A stretch of 32,793 bases of DNA from a virus (taxonomy: Duplodnaviria; Caudoviricetes): IMG/VR virus record IMGVR_UViG_3300048599_000293, positions 1 to 32,793 of that record; one strand, 5' to 3'. Below, in pieces: positions 1,066-13,480 of the stretch. Numbering within the stretch: the stretch's first letter is position 1; each line of letters opens with the position of its first letter. The position numbers and the translations under genes are program-made. The notes under the pieces were generated by a model. It had not been told where the DNA came from, searched no databases, and was given only the letters and a program-made list of their open reading frames with translations.

Positions 1066-1884
1066 TCAATGATGCTGCGGAACGCGCAGCGGGTTGTGAT
1101 AGTCGGCCGGCAGGTAGCCCTGCAGGTCCTTCTTGATGTAGTGCGCTTTGCCGAGGCGTTGCAGCTTGTCGATCATGCGCAGCGTGTAGTCACCCCAATC
1201 GGTGGTGCGCGTGATCTCCTTGAGATAGTTGGCGCGGCCGACCTTGTAGAGATCGACGAAGCCGTGCGTCGCATCGACGATGGCGAGGCTGCTGTCGCAG
1301 TCGATGGTGGGCTCCAGGCTGAGCCAAGTGAAGATGCCGCGTTCGTGGAATGCCTTGAGCGCCGCAATGCGATCCGCCGGCAGCGCCGCGCCGCTTTCCC
1401 ACTTCTGGGAAAAGCGATCGTCGAGGCTGGTCATGGTCGAAGCGAAGGCGTCGCGGTCTGGCCGAAAGAGGCTGAGGTCGCGCAGCGCGCGGGTGCCGCC
1501 CTTTGTGAGCGCACAGATCGCGAGACCGTGTTCGATCATGATCTCGAACGATTGCCGCGTAAGCGAGCTATCGCCCGGGTGGTACGGGTCGGACGTGAAC
1601 GAGATCATCACCTGATCGGTGATGCCGGCGGCCTCGTATTTGATGGCATCTTTCTTCAGCTCGGCGAGATAGCTGCGCCGCTCGATCGCGCCATCGTTGA
1701 ACTCGCGCCGATCCTGCTTCGTGATGAGCGGCACGTAGCAATAGGCGCACTTGTGGCCGCAGCCGCGATAAGGATTGGCGGCGAGCGCCGAGTATTCGCC
1801 GGCCTGGCCCTTCGGCGGATAGATGAACTTGCAGCCTTCGACGTAGCGACTGACACCGTCCGCGTTGGTTTTGATTTCGAGCAT
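1066..1884 (-). CDS. Radical SAM protein, spore photoproduct lyase-like family
   Basis: NPYRGCGHKCAYCY (CxxxCxxC), TSDPY, LTKG, RIAALKAFHERGI and SLEP motifs typical of the SPL-like group. Confidence 0.85.
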   Translation of the reverse strand: MLEIKTNADGVSRYVEGCKFIYPPKGQAGEYSALAANPYRGCGHKCAYCYVPLITKQDRREFNDGAIERRSYLAELKKDAIKYEAAGITDQVMISFTSDPYHPGDSSLTRQSFEIMIEHGLAICALTKGGTRALRDLSLFRPDRDAFASTMTSLDDRFSQKWESGAALPADRIAALKAFHERGIFTWLSLEPTIDCDSSLAIVDATHGFVDLYKVGRANYLKEITRTTDWGDYTLRMIDKLQRLGKAHYIKKDLQGYLPADYHNPLRVPQHH

Positions 1885-5390: not shown

Positions 5391-6464
5391 ATGGCCGTCA
5401 ATGACGACATTGCCGACCTTCAGGTCCGGCACATGGTCGGCTTGCAGCGTTACTCCACCAGCGTGGTGCGCAAGATCATAGCGTTGCTCAACCGGGTTGA
5501 GCCCGACCTGATCGCGCAAATCCTGAAGCGCGACCCGACCGCGGTCAGCGGCGAGTTTTCGCAGCGTCGCCTTGAAGCCCTGCTGGAAGCGATCCGCGAG
5601 ATCAACGCCGCCGCCTATCGAGAGGTGCAGCGCGACCTGCGGGACGAACTAGGCCAGCTCGCGGTCTATGAGACCTCGTTCCAGCAGCGCCTGGTCGGCG
5701 GCGCAATCACGGTCGAACTCGACGTAGTGACGCCATCGGCCCAGCAGCTGAAGGCAGCGGTGCTGGCCCGCCCGCTCCAAGGCCGCCTTCTAAAGGAATG
5801 GGCGCAAGGCCTCGAACAGCAAGCCTATGTCCGGGTGCGCGATGCCATCCGCATGGGCTTCGTGCAGGGCGAGACCATCGACCAGATGGTGAGACGCATT
5901 CGCGGCACGAAGGCCGCCAGCTTCGCGGACGGCGTCCTCGAAATCTCCCGGCGCGCGGCCGAGCGCGTTGTCAGGACTGCGGTCAATCACACCGCCAACT
6001 ATGCGCGCGAGCTGTTCTACGCCGAGAACGACGACCTCATCAAAGGTGTGATGTGGGTTGCCACTCTCGACACCAGGACCTGCACCGAATGCATGGCCCT
6101 CGACAAACAGGAGTTCGACGTTGACGAGGGGCCGCGCCCGCCCCTGCACCTCAACTGCCGGTGCACGACAACGCCGATCACCAAAAGCTGGAAGGAGCTT
6201 GGCATCAATCTGCCGGAAGCGCCGGAAGGCACGCGCGCCAGCATGAACGGACAGGTCCCGGCCTCTCTCAGCTACAACGAATGGCTAAAGAACCAGACCG
6301 CCGCGGTCCAGGACGAAGCTCTCGGGCCGACCCGGGGCGCACTCTTCCGAAAGGGCGGCCTCCCCGTCGATCGCTTCGTCAACCGCAACGGCGATCAGAT
6401 CACGCTCGATGAGCTGGAGGAGCAAGAGGCCGCAGCGTTCCGGAAAGCCGGGCTCGCCGCATGA
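5391..6464 (+). CDS. Minor head / head morphogenesis protein (SPP1 gp7 / Mu F family)
   Basis: VVRTAVNH, WVATLDTRT...C and PPLHLNCRC motifs; follows the portal gene. Confidence 0.9.
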   Translation: MAVNDDIADLQVRHMVGLQRYSTSVVRKIIALLNRVEPDLIAQILKRDPTAVSGEFSQRRLEALLEAIREINAAAYREVQRDLRDELGQLAVYETSFQQRLVGGAITVELDVVTPSAQQLKAAVLARPLQGRLLKEWAQGLEQQAYVRVRDAIRMGFVQGETIDQMVRRIRGTKAASFADGVLEISRRAAERVVRTAVNHTANYARELFYAENDDLIKGVMWVATLDTRTCTECMALDKQEFDVDEGPRPPLHLNCRCTTTPITKSWKELGINLPEAPEGTRASMNGQVPASLSYNEWLKNQTAAVQDEALGPTRGALFRKGGLPVDRFVNRNGDQITLDELEEQEAAAFRKAGLAA

Positions 6465-7036
6465 TCCGCCGCCGCTTCCTGCAGATGCTTGGCTTCGCGC
6501 CCGTCGTAGCCCCGATGGCGGCTGCCGCCGCGACCGAGACAGCGACGCACTTGGGCTTCGCCGGCGGCGAGTTTATTGGGCCCGGCGTGCCGACGCATGT
6601 CTTCGGTGAAGCTGCGAGCGATTACGTGATGCCGCGCGATACGGTAGAGCGAATGTCGGCCAAGGGAATGACCTTCGATAACGTCGGGATCAAACCGCAG
6701 GAGCTGTCAGAAATAGCCCGAATTTCGGGCATGGAAGGCCCTGCCGGCTGCGGCTATGATGCGGCGATGCCAGATGAAGACCGCAAGCTGACCGTGATCG
6801 ACGGCGACCGCCCAGCCGATCGGCCGCGCGCCGGTCGTCGTCGCGATATCGCCGAAGACGAGCAAGTGACGTGCTGGCGCTGCCTCGCCGATATCAAGGT
6901 CGAGACCTCGGCGGTCGTGCCGGTCACTCTGGCGCCGCGCCGCACGCCGGACGGCAGGAAGACCGGCGGCACCAAGATTTGGGCCTGCGCGCATTGCCTA
7001 GCGCGCGGCGTCGTCACCGAGCTGATCGGCTCCTAA
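6461..7036 (+). CDS. Hypothetical protein with a twin-arginine-like N-terminus and a C-terminal CxxC...CxxC Zn-ribbon-like domain
   Basis: ATGA overlap with the upstream gene; MIRRRFLQ start; CWRC and CAHC near the end; possible internal start at ATG 6767. Confidence 0.6.
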   Translation: MIRRRFLQMLGFAPVVAPMAAAAATETATHLGFAGGEFIGPGVPTHVFGEAASDYVMPRDTVERMSAKGMTFDNVGIKPQELSEIARISGMEGPAGCGYDAAMPDEDRKLTVIDGDRPADRPRAGRRRDIAEDEQVTCWRCLADIKVETSAVVPVTLAPRRTPDGRKTGGTKIWACAHCLARGVVTELIGS

Positions 7037-7051
7037 CCGCAACGGACATCG

Positions 7052-8131
7052 ATGGACCTTGGGGCGCGACGGCGACGCACGCTGTTTCGCGAGTGCTTCC
7101 GCCATTTGCCGGAGGTCAAGCGCAAGCGGATAGCGCCGACGCCGGCGAACGATATGCGCCTGCACCGTCTCGAGCGGCCGGAGCCTTGGGAGCTTGAGGT
7201 CCTTGACGCGATCGCCGACATGCCGGAGACCGCGGTCAACCACTACCCGGACTATGCGGCCTTCTATCGCCGGCTGGCAGACTTCGTCGGCATTGGTCCG
7301 GATCAGATCGTGGTCGGTCAGGGTATCGAGGAATTCATCCGCACGCTGGTGCTGCTCTGCTGCGAGCCCGGCGAAGAATTCGCCTACACATGGCCGACCT
7401 GCGCGATGTTCGATGTCTACGCCGAGGTCTTCGGCGCAAAGCCGTGCCGCATCGTCACAGATCCGGCCCGACCGCTGCGGGCCGAGGACATCAAGCTGTC
7501 GGCCGCCACTCGCCTGCTGATCCTGCCGAACCCGGGCCAGCCGGTCGACGAGTGTTTCTCGATCGAGGAATTGCGCGCGATCGCGGCGCTCTGCGAGAGC
7601 ATCGGCGCCGTGCTTGCCATCGATGAGGCGTATCACTGGTTCGGCGCGCCGTCGGCTTTGGCGCTGACCATGGAATTCGACAACGTGGTGGTGCTGCGCA
7701 CTTTCTCGAAGGCGTTCGGTGCTGCAGGCCTGCGCGTCGGCTTCGCGATCGGCAGCCAGCAAATCGTGAGGACCCTCGACGCCATCCGGTTGTCGGGAGA
7801 GATCGGCGGCCCGTCGATACACGCGGCCACGGTGCTGATGGACCGGTGGGAAAGCCACATCCTGCCGGGCATCGCCCGCGTCGTCGCCGGTCGTGACTGG
7901 CTGCGCCAGAAGCTCGAAAGCGAGGGCTTCCCGGCGCGCGGGCGTTGGGCGAACCACGTTCTCGCCAACCTGTGCGACGCGAGAGTGGCCGACGCGACCG
8001 CGACCAGGCTGAAGGCGCGCGGCGTTCATGTTCGAGTGAACGAGCCGCCGCTTCATCGTCACCTGCTCATCACCTGCGGCAGCGTCGACCTGATGCGCCG
8101 GTTCTATCGGGAGTTCAGGGCCGCCCTATGA
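7052..8131 (+). CDS. PLP-dependent enzyme, aminotransferase class I/II (HisC/CobD-like)
   Basis: YPD, LPNPGQP, IDEAY and LRTFSKAFGAAGLRVG (PLP lysine) motifs. Confidence 0.92.
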   Translation: MDLGARRRRTLFRECFRHLPEVKRKRIAPTPANDMRLHRLERPEPWELEVLDAIADMPETAVNHYPDYAAFYRRLADFVGIGPDQIVVGQGIEEFIRTLVLLCCEPGEEFAYTWPTCAMFDVYAEVFGAKPCRIVTDPARPLRAEDIKLSAATRLLILPNPGQPVDECFSIEELRAIAALCESIGAVLAIDEAYHWFGAPSALALTMEFDNVVVLRTFSKAFGAAGLRVGFAIGSQQIVRTLDAIRLSGEIGGPSIHAATVLMDRWESHILPGIARVVAGRDWLRQKLESEGFPARGRWANHVLANLCDARVADATATRLKARGVHVRVNEPPLHRHLLITCGSVDLMRRFYREFRAAL

Positions 8132-8796
8132 GTGAGTTCGTTTTCGCTGAGAAAGACGGCGCGCTGCAATTCGTCGGCGACTTCGACGCGCTGTATCGAT
8201 CCGAGCGCGACCCGTGGTTTCAAGGCGACGATCGCGGGCCGATGGCGGCGTACTATCTGGCGTCGCGGCGGCGCATCGTCCGCGCGCTGTTCGAGACTAG
8301 GGCCACGCCTTCCGGGCGCGGGCTCGAAATCGGATGCGGCCACGGGCACGCCATTCGTCATCTTCGCTGTCACAGCCCGGTCCATCGTTGGACCGGGATC
8401 GACATATCGAAGGTCGCGATCGAGCAAGCGCGCGAGCTGTGCCGCGGGGTCGAGTTCGGGGTTTGCGACATCAGGATCGAGCCGCCGCACTTCGAGCCGT
8501 TCGATGTCGTCGTGATGAACCAGATCCTCTGGTACGTCCTCACCAAGATCGACGCCACGGTCCATAACGCTGGCCGCAAGCTGAACACCGGCGGCCTCTT
8601 TGTGGTCTCACAGGCCTTTCTGACCGGCGAGCAACGTTTCGGCCGCGACATCGCCGATGGCTTCGTCGGAACGCTTCGTCTCTTCCTCGACCGTTACAAG
8701 TGGCTGAGTTTGCTGTTCGCGGACTACGAAGACACCTCGGCGCATCAGCACAACGACGGCGTCCTTGTTTTTCGAAAGATCGCCAATGCTGACTGA
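8128..8796 (+). CDS. Class I SAM-dependent methyltransferase (NodS-like features)
   Basis: ATG 8128 overlaps the upstream stop (ATGA); RDPW, GLEIGCGHG, GIDIS and FDVVVMNQILWY motifs. Confidence 0.88.
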   Translation: MSEFVFAEKDGALQFVGDFDALYRSERDPWFQGDDRGPMAAYYLASRRRIVRALFETRATPSGRGLEIGCGHGHAIRHLRCHSPVHRWTGIDISKVAIEQARELCRGVEFGVCDIRIEPPHFEPFDVVVMNQILWYVLTKIDATVHNAGRKLNTGGLFVVSQAFLTGEQRFGRDIADGFVGTLRLFLDRYKWLSLLFADYEDTSAHQHNDGVLVFRKIANAD

Positions 8797-9658
8797 AGCC
8801 ACGCGCGCCAATCTGGAACGCAAGGCCGCCTATGCCGATCCGCTGCACCTGCACGATGGGGTGCCGGTCTTCTCCTGGGTCGACCTGAACGTCACCGAAC
8901 TGTGCAACCGTTCAGCGGGATCGCCGAAGGCATGCCGGTTTTGTCCGCGGATCGATCCGGCCTTCTATCCGAACCAGCGTCTGCACATGCCGATCGGGAT
9001 GGCGCGCAAGATCGGCGACGAATTGCGAGCCCTGCCCTATCACGGGGCGATCGCGTTATGCGGCTTCGGAGAGCCGCTGTTGCATCCGGAGATATTGGCG
9101 ATCGTCGGCGCCCTTGCAGGATTGCGGGTCGAGATCATCACCAACGGCGACCGGCTGACGCCAGCAATGATCGCCGAGCTGTACGAGGCCGGCGCCAACT
9201 ATCTCGTCGTGTCGCTCTATGACGGACCCGAACAGGTCGAGCGTATGCACCAGATGTTCGAGGCCGCCGGCCGCGATCAGCACGACTATGTTCTGCGCGA
9301 TCGCTGGTACGACGACGGTGCGGATTTTGGGCTAAAGCTCACGAACCGCGCCGGCACCATCCATGTCGGGAGTCAGGCACCCGTGCCGACCGGCCGCCCT
9401 TGTCACTATCCGGCCTATCAGCTGACGGTCGACTGGAACGGCGACGTGCTGCTCTGCGTCCAGGACTGGAACAAGCGCCTGCGCTTCGGCAACGTCCAGT
9501 CGCAGAGCCTCTGGTCGATTTGGACCTCGCCGGCCCTCAGCAAGCGCCGCACCCAGCTGTTGCGCGGGGACCGATCCGGAGCGCCATGCTCTGCCTGCAA
9601 TGCGGATGGGTGCCTGCACGGCACCCTTCACGCTGAGGCCTGGCGCGGCGCCCGGTAG
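8786..9658 (+). CDS. Radical SAM protein with SPASM/Twitch domain
   Basis: CX9CX2C (CNRSAGSPKACRFC), GFGEPLL, ITNG; C-terminal PCHYP...VDWNGDVLLC...FGNV...PCSAC. Confidence 0.88.
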   Translation: MLTEATRANLERKAAYADPLHLHDGVPVFSWVDLNVTELCNRSAGSPKACRFCPRIDPAFYPNQRLHMPIGMARKIGDELRALPYHGAIALCGFGEPLLHPEILAIVGALAGLRVEIITNGDRLTPAMIAELYEAGANYLVVSLYDGPEQVERMHQMFEAAGRDQHDYVLRDRWYDDGADFGLKLTNRAGTIHVGSQAPVPTGRPCHYPAYQLTVDWNGDVLLCVQDWNKRLRFGNVQSQSLWSIWTSPALSKRRTQLLRGDRSGAPCSACNADGCLHGTLHAEAWRGAR

Positions 9659-9666
9659 CGTCGCCC

Positions 9667-10302
9667 ATGTCGAGCTGCGCGATCATCGGTCACGGGCGAT
9701 CGCCCGAAGGTAAGGCGTGGGCCTCCCTCATCGACGCCTGCGACACCGTCATCCGCATGTGGGACTGCCAATGGCAGGACCCGGCGGTCCTCGGCAATCG
9801 GTACGATATCGGGCTCTACGAACTGCATCCGACGATGATGGCGACGTTCCATGAAAACGTGCGCCGCAACCCCCGACGCGGCTGGGTGGCGTCCCTGCTT
9901 AAGCCGGTGGCGCGCAGCCAGATTTTGCCGCGGACGCAGATCGTCGACCAGCAGCGATGGAACGAGATCGGCATCGCGATGGGTGGTCTCGGTATGACCG
10001 GCCGGCTTCAGTTCACGCGCGGCACCATCGCCGCCTGCTGGGCGATCGAGGATGCCGAGCCCGGCGACCGCGTGATCCTGGTCGGCTTCGACAACATTCG
10101 GCGCGGGGTCACGCTGCCGCTCGATCAGGCCTTCTGCCCTGCCTATCGAGGCAACCCGGGCAGCTATTCGTTCGAGGGCTACCGCGCGCAGCGGACCAAG
10201 GACGGCAACCACGATTTCGCGATCGAGCTTCCGGTTATGCGCCGGCTCGCGGCCGATCATGGCGTGTCGGTCGTGTTCGCCGAGGATGTCTGGCCGTGCT
10301 GA
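9667..10302 (+). CDS. Glycosyltransferase family 29 (sialyltransferase)-like protein
   Basis: CAIIGHG...IDACDTVIRM resembles sialylmotif L; FTRGTIA...VILVGFD resembles motif S; HDFAIE matches motif VS (HxxxxE). Confidence 0.72.
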   Translation: MSSCAIIGHGRSPEGKAWASLIDACDTVIRMWDCQWQDPAVLGNRYDIGLYELHPTMMATFHENVRRNPRRGWVASLLKPVARSQILPRTQIVDQQRWNEIGIAMGGLGMTGRLQFTRGTIAACWAIEDAEPGDRVILVGFDNIRRGVTLPLDQAFCPAYRGNPGSYSFEGYRAQRTKDGNHDFAIELPVMRRLAADHGVSVVFAEDVWPC

Positions 10303-10832
10303 CCGCGCTGGTCCTGGGCGACGCAACCTGTGTTCACGAGGACGCGGCACGCGCGCTCGCGATGTTCACGCCCGACGCGATCGCGGCAACGAACAATATC
10401 GGGATCTCGTGGCCCTCGCGCATCGACTATTGGTGCACGCTGCACCCGCGCCCATGCCCGGACTGGCCCGGGATCGTCGTGGCTATGGAGCGTCGTCGCG
10501 CCGCAGGCCTCAACCGGCCACAGACCTGGGCGCACGCGCCGAGCGAAGGCATCGACCGCACGACGACCGACTGGCACGCATCGAGCGGCGGGCTGTGCGT
10601 CAAGGTGCTGCGCGAGGAAGGCTTCGAGCGGATCGTCCTCGCCGGCGTCCCCATGAATGCCGAGGGCGGCCACTTCTACGACGCGCGGCCCTGGCTTCAG
10701 GCCCATCGGTATCAGGCAGGCTGGACCAACAAGATCAAGATCATCAGGCCATTCGTTCGATCGATGAGCGGATGGACGAAGGAATTGTTGGGCGAACCTT
10801 CGCCCGACTGGATCGCCGGCATCGCCGGATGA
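10296..10832 (+). CDS. Second GT29/GT42/MAF-fold-like transferase (putative)
   Basis: GTG 10296 overlapping the upstream gene; ALVLG...AATN...WCTLH and SSG...GFERIVLAGVPM...HFY pattern resembles this Rossmann-like transferase fold. Confidence 0.55.
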   Translation: MLTALVLGDATCVHEDAARALAMFTPDAIAATNNIGISWPSRIDYWCTLHPRPCPDWPGIVVAMERRRAAGLNRPQTWAHAPSEGIDRTTTDWHASSGGLCVKVLREEGFERIVLAGVPMNAEGGHFYDARPWLQAHRYQAGWTNKIKIIRPFVRSMSGWTKELLGEPSPDWIAGIAG

Positions 10833-10840
10833 TCGAACCG

Positions 10841-10918
10841 CGGCCCTGAGGCGCGAAGGCGCCGACTGAGGCCGATCACCGCGGCGAATGCCGCAACCGA
10901 ACCGGGGCGAACGCCTCG
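10841..10918 (+). promoter_or_regulatory. Three GC-GAAN-GC hairpins in the scaffold gene leader
   Basis: ggcgc-gaag-gcgcc (10850-10863), gcggc-gaat-gccgc (10881-10894), cggggc-gaac-gcctcg (10903-10918, adjacent to the RBS). Confidence 0.7.
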
Positions 10919-10934
10919 AAGGGAAAGAGCGACA

Positions 10935-11729
10935 ATGAAACTGAAGCTTGACGCAAACGGCAACGCGGTCCTGCAAGACGGCAAGCCGGTCTATGTCCGC
11001 GAGGACGGCACGGAGGTCGCATTCGACGCCCCGGCCACGATCAACACCATCACCCGTCTGACCGACGAATCCAAAGGGTACAAGATCCGCGCCCAGACCG
11101 CCGAGGAAAAGCTGAAGGTGTTCGAGGGCATCGAAGACCCGGCGGCCGCCAAGAAGGCCCTGGAGACCGTTGCCAATCTCGACGCCGGCCAGCTCGTGAC
11201 CGCCGGTAAGGTCGAGGAGATCAAGACCGCGGCCAAGAAGGCCGCCGACGATCAGGTCGCGGCCGCAACCAAGGCCCTCAACGACCAGCTCGTGGCCCAG
11301 AAGGCAGATCTTGCCAAGGCCCACGGCACCATCGATGAGCTGCTGATCGGTGGTGCGTTCAGCGGATCGAAGACGATTCAGGAAAAATTCGTAGTTCCGT
11401 CCGATATGATCCGCAACACATTCGGAAAGAACTTCAAGGTCGAAGAGGGTAAGGTCGTCGCCTACGACGCCTCCGGCAACAAGCTCTACTCGCGCGCGAA
11501 GCCGGGCGAGCTTGCTGATTTCGAGGAAGGGCTCGAGCTGCTGGTCGCGGCCTATCCCCACAAAGACCAAATCCTCAAGGGGAACTCGAACGCCGGCAAT
11601 GGCGCGCATAACGAGGGCGGCGCCGACAAGGGTGGCGACAAGGGTGGCAAGTCCGGCGATCTGACGGGCACCCGCGCGGAACGCACCGCCACGATCGGCA
11701 CCATGTTCAAAGACCTGCCGCTCTCTTAG
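10935..11729 (+). CDS. Capsid scaffolding protein (DUF6651-like)
   Basis: MKLKLDANGNAVLQDGKPVYV start, coiled-coil middle, FKVEEGKVVAYD...YSR..PGELADFEE; directly upstream of the major capsid gene. Confidence 0.85.
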   Translation: MKLKLDANGNAVLQDGKPVYVREDGTEVAFDAPATINTITRLTDESKGYKIRAQTAEEKLKVFEGIEDPAAAKKALETVANLDAGQLVTAGKVEEIKTAAKKAADDQVAAATKALNDQLVAQKADLAKAHGTIDELLIGGAFSGSKTIQEKFVVPSDMIRNTFGKNFKVEEGKVVAYDASGNKLYSRAKPGELADFEEGLELLVAAYPHKDQILKGNSNAGNGAHNEGGADKGGDKGGKSGDLTGTRAERTATIGTMFKDLPLS

Positions 11730-11744
11730 ATCGCGGGTCGTACT

Positions 11745-11906
11745 GCCTCTCGAATGAGGCGCGTCACGGCGAGGGCGAAGGCTTCTCGACGCATTCGGGG
11801 CGAAGGCCTCACCACCACGATCACGTCCGTTGCGGGGCGAACGCACCGCACCTGAACTGCCCAGAGGCGAATGCCTCGAATGCGTCGGCGAATGCCGCAC
11901 GCCGAC
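11745..11906 (+). ncRNA. Putative structured cis-regulatory RNA between the scaffold and major capsid genes
   Basis: Six C-GAAN-G hairpins plus an alternative 15-bp helix (11787-11801 with 11873-11887) in a 216-nt intergenic gap. Confidence 0.6.
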
Positions 11907-11945
11907 AACGCGTCAACCCATCATCATTCGAAAGGACCACGAGAC

Positions 11946-12926
11946 ATGCTGTCTCATATGCAGGTTTTCAACAAATACATCATGCCGGCGACGATCGAGA
12001 CGCTGGCGCAGATGGTCAAGAAGTTCAACGCGGCTTCCGGCGGCGCGATCCGCCTGACCACCGAGGGCTTCACCGGTGACTTCCTCCAGGAGTCGTTCTT
12101 CGCCTCGATCCAATCGGCGCGACGCCGTGTCGATCGCTATGCGTCCAACACCGATGCTCCCGTCACCGACCTGTCCGAGCTGAAGCACTCGACGGTCAAG
12201 GTGGCTGGCGGCTTCGGTCCGATCCGGTTCGAGCCGGGCCAACTCACCTGGCTGGAGCGCCCCACCCAGCAGGGCGTCGAGGTCGCGTCCCGCAACTTCG
12301 CCGAGGCGTTGATGCAGGACCAGCTCAATACCGCCATCATGGTGCTGGTCGCCGCAATCGAGGCCAACTCCGCGCTGGTCAATGACGTGTCGACCGGATC
12401 GCCTGCGCTGCCGGTCAGCTACTCGGCGATGAACGGCGCACACGCCAAGTTCGGCGATCACTCCGGGTCGATCGTCGCGGACGTGATGACCGGCGCCGTT
12501 GCGCATCGCCTCATCGGTCAGAACATCGCCAATCTCGAAGGCCTGTTCGACGCCAAGTCCGTCCGCATCATCGAACTGCTGGGCAAGGTGGCGATCATCA
12601 CCGATGCCCCGGCCCTCTTCGAGGCGGTGTCGGGCGACGACGACCTCGAAAAGGTGCTGAGCCTGGTCGACGGTGCCGCGATCATCCACGACGCCGGCGA
12701 CGTGATCTCGAACGTCGAGACCTCGAACGGCAAGCAGCGCATCGAGACCACGGTGCAGGTGGATTACACCTTCGGCGTCGGCGTGAAGGGCTACACCTGG
12801 AACGAGACCGCCGGCGGCAAGTCGCCGACCGACGAAGACCTCGCCACCGGCTCGAATTGGGTGAAGGTCGCGTCGAGCAACAAGCACACCGCAGGCGTGC
12901 TGACGGTCGGCTCGGCCGACGTCTAG
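11946..12926 (+). CDS. Major capsid protein
   Basis: ATG 11946 preceded by AAAGGA; FNAASGGAIRL N-terminal motif, GVKGYTW...GGKSPT...NW...KHTAGV C-terminus; followed by a terminator. Confidence 0.9.
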   Translation: MLSHMQVFNKYIMPATIETLAQMVKKFNAASGGAIRLTTEGFTGDFLQESFFASIQSARRRVDRYASNTDAPVTDLSELKHSTVKVAGGFGPIRFEPGQLTWLERPTQQGVEVASRNFAEALMQDQLNTAIMVLVAAIEANSALVNDVSTGSPALPVSYSAMNGAHAKFGDHSGSIVADVMTGAVAHRLIGQNIANLEGLFDAKSVRIIELLGKVAIITDAPALFEAVSGDDDLEKVLSLVDGAAIIHDAGDVISNVETSNGKQRIETTVQVDYTFGVGVKGYTWNETAGGKSPTDEDLATGSNWVKVASSNKHTAGVLTVGSADV

Positions 12927-12948
12927 TCGTTGCCGACAATGGACTGAG

Positions 12949-12979
12949 CGGCCGGGTGAGAGCCCGGCCGTCTTTCTTT
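12949..12979 (+). terminator. Rho-independent terminator after the major capsid gene
   Basis: cggccgggt-gaga-gcccggccg stem-loop followed by tctttcttt. Confidence 0.8.
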
Positions 12980-13003
12980 GCGCAATCCAGCGAGTGAGGC
13001 ACC

Positions 13004-13480
13004 ATGAAGGAAATTGTCTATTCCGGGCAGAAGTCCGGCTTCGTCGCGGGTGTGCGGTACGTAAACCCGCGCCTGTTCAATCGTCCGCGCGAGAGCGTCA
13101 CCAGCGTCATCATCATCGGAGGCTGGGAACAGGTCGCGACCGCCTATCGGATGCGCGGCGCGAAGGTTCGCCGGTTCGCAACCCCGGAGGAATTCGAGGC
13201 TTGGCACCGCAATCGGCCGGAGTCGTCGACCGATGGCGAAGGCGGTGACGGCGGCGATCCGGGCGCTGCCAAGGACAACGATCCGAGCACGATCGATCTG
13301 CCGGCCGAGGCCATCGTCGCGGAAATGACGTGGCCCGAAGTCCGGGCGCTGGCGAAGGCTATCACCGGCCATTCACCCAAGAACCGCGAGAGCTGTTTGA
13401 CGGTCATCGCCGACGAGCGGGCCCGCCGGCAGGCCGCAACTGAGGCCGCCGCGGCCGAAGCCGCCAAGACCTCCGAGTAA
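13004..13480 (+). CDS. Hypothetical head-associated protein
   Basis: GAGG RBS; position after the capsid gene; short helical C-terminal module (MTWPEVRALAKAI). Confidence 0.65.
   Translation: MKEIVYSGQKSGFVAGVRYVNPRLFNRPRESVTSVIIIGGWEQVATAYRMRGAKVRRFATPEEFEAWHRNRPESSTDGEGGDGGDPGAAKDNDPSTIDLPAEAIVAEMTWPEVRALAKAITGHSPKNRESCLTVIADERARRQAATEAAAAEAAKTSE

Follow-up and report, generated by a model that had tools for sequence, protein, structure and literature searches.

Loops of a conserved hairpin array at DUF6651 phage scaffold genes change with scaffold residues 41-55, and free scaffold is their likely reader

Autoregulation of the phage P22 scaffold was reportedly described by Wyckoff and Casjens in 1985. 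The MS2 coat hairpin, T4 gp32 and lambda N/boxB are other phage operators that work autogenously or through the reading of a hairpin. According to passages of one report, the N-terminal part of the P22 scaffolding protein (gp8) is implicated in the control of its own translation (10.1101/2022.12.13.520362). Another survey describes, ahead of Phage_GP20 scaffold genes, the RNAs GP20-a (RF02991) and GP20-b (RF03003) together with six more candidates; its passages on the GP20 RNAs name no reader, and the autogenous control by T4 gp32 is mentioned (PMC10690425). Its Supplementary Table 3 lists a candidate preceding P22-type coat genes, DNAVirus_7287, but nothing for DUF6651 (PMC10690425). Scaffold autoregulation and, from these passages, candidate RNAs before GP20 scaffold genes (PMC10690425) are already known. 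What is new is that the scaffold is named as the candidate reader of the DUF6651 leader hairpins and that, in sequence comparisons, the loop class tracks residues 41-55. In the literature covered, largely that outside subscription journals, no description of the DUF6651 array, of the helix-loop correspondence or of the capsid switch was found.

The locus lies in a virus record of 32,793 bases, analysed over its whole length and referred to as the window. Like P22 gp8, its protein of interest is a head scaffold; in its family, residues 41-55 co-vary with the hairpin loops. Unlike in P22, where the portal-scaffold gap is 13 nt, the scaffold-coat junction overlaps and no spacer array of such a kind was seen, the sites are repeated, their loop code tracks a helix and they recur before the capsid gene; the PHROG and Pfam matches of the window scaffold include no P22 gp8 family. 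Like GP20-a and GP20-b, as far as these are covered by the passages above, the array is a predicted cis-regulatory RNA directly upstream of a phage scaffold-type gene, but it scores below the gathering threshold and the downstream gene matches PF20356 only, not Phage_GP20 (PF06810). Tandem short fixed-loop hairpins beside the RBS also characterize the GGA leaders bound by CsrA/RsmA; unlike these, the DUF6651 array has a C-G-closed tetraloop, rarely an A two before GGA, loops that vary with a phage protein, and an occurrence in hosts where CsrA was not found. As in lambda N/boxB, a phage protein helix would read a short hairpin with phage-specific loop preference. Unlike MS2 coat, gp32 or N, the reader would be an assembly scaffold, acting at multiple sites with predicted opposite effects on two adjacent genes.

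The window contains genes for terminase, portal, head, tail and lysis (PHROG and Pfam profile matches), and early genes are absent from its 32,793 bases. Its scaffold was identified as the head scaffold gene directly upstream of the coat gene from phrog_206 (head scaffolding protein), gene order and weak fold matches to annotated phage scaffolds; phrog_784 and phrog_206 match it at E 8e-16. A Foldseek search of the scaffold model against the PDB gave nothing at E < 0.001 (best E 0.6), and an Atlas search with residues 1-70 gave unnamed clusters only, PF06810 being merely a sub-0.9 lead. The AlphaFold model (mean pLDDT 86, pTM 0.50) has two helices, one at 32-61 and a long one at 69-143, besides a small beta region and a C-terminal domain. 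The capsid start was set by the N-termini of homologues and a Shine-Dalgarno sequence (SD) at 11930-11936, and a sigma-70 promoter scan of 9600-13100 found none (Table 1). Between the head morphogenesis and scaffold genes, a cassette (6461-10832) encodes a HisC-like aminotransferase, a SAM methyltransferase, a radical SAM/SPASM protein, a weak glycosyltransferase-like ORF and unknowns, and is possibly a virion or metabolite modification cassette; at three loci with a different scaffold family (L022, L039, L062), the sequence just 5′ of the scaffold leader resembles the end of its last gene. Just before the terminase genes lie three further ORFs: one with a cold-shock domain, one that is possibly methyltransferase-like and, on the opposite strand, a radical SAM gene.

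Table 1. Positions of the features in the window
Feature	Position	Strand	Basis or remark
Three pre-terminase ORFs	48-248, 253-885, 1066-1884 (minus)		cold-shock domain; possibly methyltransferase-like; radical SAM
Scaffold leader	10833..10934	+	spacer 3′ of upstream ORF stop (10832); fold -43.4 kcal/mol, z -2.2
Leader hairpin 1, C-GAAG-G	10850..10863	+	closing-pair probability 0.99; outer stem about 10841-10872
Leader hairpin 2, C-GAAU-G	10881..10894	+	closing-pair probability 1.0
Leader hairpin 3, C-GAAC-G	10903..10918	+	abuts RBS region 10919-10929
Head scaffold gene, DUF6651, 264 aa	10935..11729	+	PF20356 E 3e-38; phrog_784, phrog_206
Candidate RNA-reading segment, codons 36-55	11040..11099	+	within predicted helix 32-61 (AlphaFold); mutual information peak 41-55
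TDESKGYK, scaffold residues 43-50	11061-11084	+	within predicted helix 32-61
Capsid-leader H1, C-GAAU-G	11745..11760	+	loop and 3′ arm alternatively pair with anti-H1 segment
Capsid-leader H2, GAAG	11770..11788	+	folding
11-bp long-range helix, 11787-11797 with 11877-11887	11787..11887	+	sequence and constrained folds; can close junction of H3, H4, H5
Capsid-leader H3, GAAG	11797..11810	+	folding
Capsid-leader H4, GAAC	11831..11850	+	folding; 2-bp tip over 1x1 mismatch
Capsid-leader H5, GAAU	11864..11877	+	folding
Capsid-leader H6, GAAU	11886..11897	+	folding
Anti-H1 segment	11908..11935	+	11908-11914 and 11924-11931 pair with 11750-11764 (H1 loop, 3′ arm)
Major capsid protein gene, Gp13-like	11946..12926	+	PF20036 E 1e-115; phrog_247; relatives
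Terminator-like hairpin 3′ of capsid gene	12948..12981	+	-

A first-pass annotation of the window had described nine hairpins around the scaffold gene, eight of them with a GC-GAAN-GC tip and one adjoining the scaffold RBS. All nine were recovered at their coordinates and each folds alone as a hairpin, eight contain GCGAANGC, and leader hairpin 3 abuts the purine-rich RBS region. Whether the motif is equally common elsewhere depends on its form. Over the whole window, the bare 8-mer GCGAANGC shows no enrichment (25 matches on the two strands versus 17.6 +/- 4.3 in shuffles, with 6 of 100 shuffles reaching 25), whereas the stemmed form is strongly clustered in two spacers: of 13 plus-strand C-GAAN-G sites with a stem of at least 4 bp, eight fall within the 319 nt of these spacers, a density of 25 per kb versus 0.15 per kb (binomial p 1e-13). 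The annotation had also read RNA structure from differing stems that remain paired, in part by G-U. Compensatory changes among relatives are strong evidence for single-strand structure, whereas the excess of G-U over A-C is only modest (9 G-U pairs versus 3 A-C mismatches in 97 RBS-proximal hairpins).

Relatives were gathered from IMG/VR, metagenomes, GTDB and named phages through scaffold or capsid homology, yielding 424 DUF6651 loci with 238 unique leaders. A typical leader has its two or three hairpins at about -65, -42 and -21 relative to the start codon, the RBS-proximal one lying mostly at -19 to -26. The majority loop is GGAN in 184 leaders, AGNAA in 17, GNGAN in 9 and GAAN in 7; two have others and 19 none. 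Coliphage HK639 is an example with a GGAN leader. Comparison with relatives had been proposed as a check, and both conservation and covariation were present. The first three stem pairs under the closing pair hold in 96, 94 and 95 of 97 leaders, versus means of 42.7, 77.8 and 77.3 in a shuffle that ignores relatedness, and GC, CG and UA are all common at the first pair; these 97 leaders were those already labelled as hairpin-bearing, with the RBS-proximal site picked by loop alone. In the window and a complete GAAN record (G408), own-type hairpin clusters are found only before scaffold and capsid, and in a complete GGAN record (G411) one cluster precedes the scaffold, with a single weak pair at another place. 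A scan for triple GCGAANGC in 4 of 64 IMG/VR parts returned 121 loci, mostly coding repeats and none in scaffold context. Rfam gave no match in the window or 35 related loci, save one tmRNA; a permuted alphaproteobacterial tmRNA gene lies inside a late-gene region (L022:5784-6115).

Several other features of these loci were recorded. Most of L081-L160 and L360-L519 have a terminator-like hairpin and U run directly before the hairpin array, which the window is without. The scaffold-capsid spacers of L329 and L398 contain a TTGACA-like promoter sequence 5′ of the downstream hairpins, which, as judged from sequence, suggests a separate capsid transcript. Seven loci with unrelated or distant scaffolds and the same capsid family (L002, L016, L045, L048, L065, L076, L078) have fixed-loop hairpins of their own, with C-AGU-G, C-AAU-G, C-UGU-G and other loops before scaffold or capsid, and in L045-L059 the leader loops differ from the spacer loops.

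The loop class follows a short segment of the scaffold. In the first three GAAN leaders (window, L430, L329), scaffold residues 43-50 read TDESKxYK, where the family has NxEAKxHR. Among the 238 leaders, TDESKxYK-type helices are accompanied by GAAN loops in 6/6, TGEN(T/V) helices by AGNAA in 17/17, and NxEAKxHR helices by GGAN in 148/162, the rest being 11 unlabelled and 3 other. NxESAxxR/EKDRH helices go with GNGAN in 8/8, a class partly defined after seeing the loops, and 45 leaders have other helix sequences, 36 of them with GGAN. Excess mutual information with loop class is 0.38 at residues 41-55, 0.19 at 31-40 and 0.04-0.07 elsewhere, with 0.06 for residues 1-30 (124 non-redundant rows; L053, L331 and L107 dropped for single or tied calls). 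Scans made on the protein only predicted the loop class correctly. A TDESK motif scan of IMG/VR gave seven loci, of which two were already known and one had a duplicate scaffold and leader; the remaining four, from two lineages, all have GAAN hairpins before scaffold and capsid. One TDESK phage (L525) has, besides GAAN, a single retained GGAU hairpin. A second scan, for scaffolds lacking Ala46 (119 loci), gave L595 with GAAN and 14 TGEN(T/V) leaders, all AGNAA, an outcome foreshadowed by three earlier TGEN leaders.

The correspondence extends to the downstream hairpins, which lie about 700 nt from the helix codons: these are GAAN in 12/12 for TDESK phages and GGAN in 64/73 for NxEAKxHR phages. 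What the data show is that helix and loops agree on either side of the scaffold gene. A second scaffold family is a remote homologue (98% probability, helices aligned; the alignment included one capsid row at 13% identity); a GTDB sample for it, giving 7 of 401 genomes, was set aside. In this family, with relatedness uncorrected, ER in the helix is accompanied by a (G/A)NGAN loop of five letters in 41/46 and non-ER in 1/8, and G at one helix position goes with GGGAN in 16/16 hairpins versus 35/64.

These observations point to the array being bound as mRNA by the free scaffold, which would repress itself and, as predicted, open the capsid RBS; we regard this combined reading as likely. For its parts, there is good reason to expect that free scaffold binds the hairpins directly through the predicted helix at residues ~41-55. 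Repression at the scaffold leader is probable, in view of the last hairpin abutting the RBS and the P22 precedent, and activation at the capsid leader, predicted by folding, is put forward tentatively. Scaffold unbound by coat would recognise the loops through helix residues ~41-55, and a bound proximal leader hairpin would block the adjacent scaffold RBS. At the capsid leader, bound scaffold would keep H1 closed and set the anti-H1/SD segment free. Scaffold not taken up by coat protein would by this feedback lead to less scaffold synthesis and more coat synthesis.

The prediction for the capsid leader stems from its folding. The three scaffold-leader hairpins dominate their ensemble, with closing-pair probabilities of 0.99-1.0. 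In the whole capsid spacer of the window, H1-H6 have probabilities of 0.00, 0.01, 0.00, 0.63, 0.00 and 0.01. The free fold of this spacer has -97.5 kcal/mol (z -3.7), versus -89.1 with five hairpins held and -77.5 with all six. Because the long-range fold beats the six-hairpin state, the six downstream hairpins do not dominate; on the evidence of folding and H1-tail duplexes, a two-state fold of which they form one state describes them better than six independent operators. The AGG of the capsid SD (11933-11935) pairs with 11746-11748 in the computed free fold. With H1 closed, unpairing in the window increases at 11920-11937 (0.39 to 0.72) and at the SD (0.43 to 0.63), whereas closing the other five with H1 left free does not change RBS-side unpairing. 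In both computed states, part of the capsid start codon lies within a 6-bp hairpin (11941-11955). The spacer shows a near two-fold symmetry, with H2/H6 and H3/H5 around H4, and H3 and H5 with their flanks (11787-11887) make up a long inverted repeat, complementary except at the GAAN loops.

The six-hairpin spacer of the window is an expanded form of the usual two. The survey of relatives covered 45 de-duplicated capsid leaders of 69, six of them from the second scaffold family, after wrong starts, long spacers and near-copies had been dropped; the window itself falls outside the length filter. H1 has a probability below 0.5 in 32/45 capsid leaders versus 11/45 scaffold leaders (the first 45 of 74). 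Holding the hairpins raised RBS-side unpairing in 26 and lowered it in 2 of the 45 capsid leaders, compared with 6 and 3 scaffold leaders, bearing in mind that forcing any hairpin closed tends to free other bases. An anti-H1 helix reached p < 0.05 in 17/45 capsid leaders; among the 28/45 without a significant one are L430, L521 and L525, which belong to the GAAN group. Own H1-tail duplexes are stronger than permuted ones (-18.2 versus -15.6, p 2e-4), a difference to which shared base composition could contribute; in this test the row of the window had a wrongly cut tail, which worked against the result, and the window was analysed separately. With shuffled tails, mean H1 probability was 0.46 versus 0.28 in the real leaders; shuffled tails thus lower H1 as well, so part of the H1 effect is non-specific. 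The competing long-range fold over the capsid RBS is a pattern of many relatives and is not universal.

Most relatives' capsid genes follow the scaffold without a spacer, and AGNAA and GNGAN phages have no scored downstream hairpins. The absence of a leader array at many capsid genes, together with an anti-H1 helix significant in just those 17 leaders, fits a reading in which the scaffold binds all hairpins through the same helix and only represses, or stabilises or recruits the mRNA, the capsid-leader fold being static or serving translational coupling. The same loop/helix data fit it. We consider it unlikely, however, since H1 is specifically outcompeted in capsid leaders by their own SD-side tail, and since repression of coat under scaffold excess would presumably worsen the imbalance.

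A second alternative is that a third factor, from phage or host, reads the loops and contacts the scaffold helix, or that helix and leader are merely linked. The leader and the helix codons lie within about 250 nt, and early genes, which are outside the window, could encode such a reader. In an independent-pairs test, 5/5 pairs went in the same direction (p 0.0625, not significant), which also leaves room for linkage. Against this, residues 1-30, closer to the leader, are almost without signal. Between the window and a GGAN phage (L362), identity is 89% over residues 1-35 and 50% over 36-55. Between L329 (GAAN) and L398 (GGAN), identity by region is 74, 35, 84 and 95%, with 35% for residues 36-55 and 95% for 131-216, and their downstream loops differ too, i.e., the loops switch across a 95% identical stretch. 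Leader/N-terminus linkage is insufficient because residues 1-35 are alike but 36-55 have diverged, with the downstream loops also differing. In addition, judged by capsid, portal and terminase, most neighbours of GAAN phages carry GGAN loops. We therefore hold this alternative to be quite unlikely.

Ancestry bears on the same question. On a tree of scaffold residues 61-216 (115 rows), GAAN needs 4 changes and AGNAA 10, and grouping the six GAAN scaffolds as one clade on these residues was rejected (AU p 3.8e-5, 26 rows); on the tree of the remaining scaffold, the loop/helix pairing thus appears in more than one branch. Single alleles spread by recombination may account for the shared helix variants. 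The window and complete GAAN phage G408 share only portal (27%) and scaffold (45%), and the window portal is closer to that of GGAN phage G411 (38%) than to that of G408 (27%). Codon-level RNA pairing was rejected as the cause, as many residues that are identical among GAAN phages differ at the third codon position; for the window and L430, this position is the same in 7/14 identical residues. This freedom of third positions points to selection on the protein.

The first-pass annotation had left the reader open between free scaffold, capsid protein and another RNA-binding protein. Support was found specifically for the scaffold, whereas capsid and the cold-shock protein (Csp) are disfavoured. 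For capsid, the proteins of two GAAN phages, L329 and L525, are 94% identical over 198 aa and 88% identical over 268 aa, respectively, to those of GGAN phages. For Csp, the window has one (PF00313) and none was found in five GAAN records, one of them complete.

A role of the hairpins as DNA, in single-strand or cruciform sites, is very improbable, as is one as stabilisers or processing signals that involve no protein. The leader hairpins do also form with DNA parameters and the G-U bias is modest, but their spacing from start codons is fixed on the sense strand, no hairpin clusters are found on the opposite strand of the window, and a protein-free role leaves the loop/helix correspondence unexplained.

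The CsrA/RsmA analogy of the annotation is disfavoured by loop context and by hosts without detected CsrA. That the array is a host CsrA/RsmA target through GGA loops, with GAAN as a drifted or escaped copy, is extremely improbable and, for this window, largely refuted: GGAN does predominate among the 238 leaders, many hosts are Gammaproteobacteria and a CsrA turned up in one of the five tested, but not in the other 4/5 host genomes with DUF6651 scaffold loci, some of them incomplete (among 14 controls only E. coli, B. subtilis and T. maritima scored, and Caulobacter did not), GGAA hairpins occur in Caulobacter phage DMCA, an A stands two bases ahead of GGA in just 6/209 GGAN sites where the CsrA consensus context is ANGGA, and the window loops are GAAN without GGA, in copies that are expanded, not decayed.

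To return to the free scaffold as reader, a broader generalization can be offered with caution: many tailed-phage scaffolds may carry an exchangeable RNA-reading helix with a simple code, making free scaffold a two-way translational regulator that shuts its own RBS and, through an RNA switch, opens that of the capsid gene. The code proposed as part of this tentative reading would be TDESKxYK for GAAN, NxEAKxHR for GGAN, TGENT for AGNAA and ESAxxR/ER for GNGAN. What the locus offers is a candidate site together with a candidate reader of 15 residues and natural variants of specificity. If true, phages and prophages sharing a host would be insulated by their differing codes, and these would constitute a natural set of orthogonal helix-hairpin pairs, i.e., of small RNA-binding helices. 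If the capsid-leader switch holds, it would be a general way for phages to set the stoichiometry of scaffold and coat.
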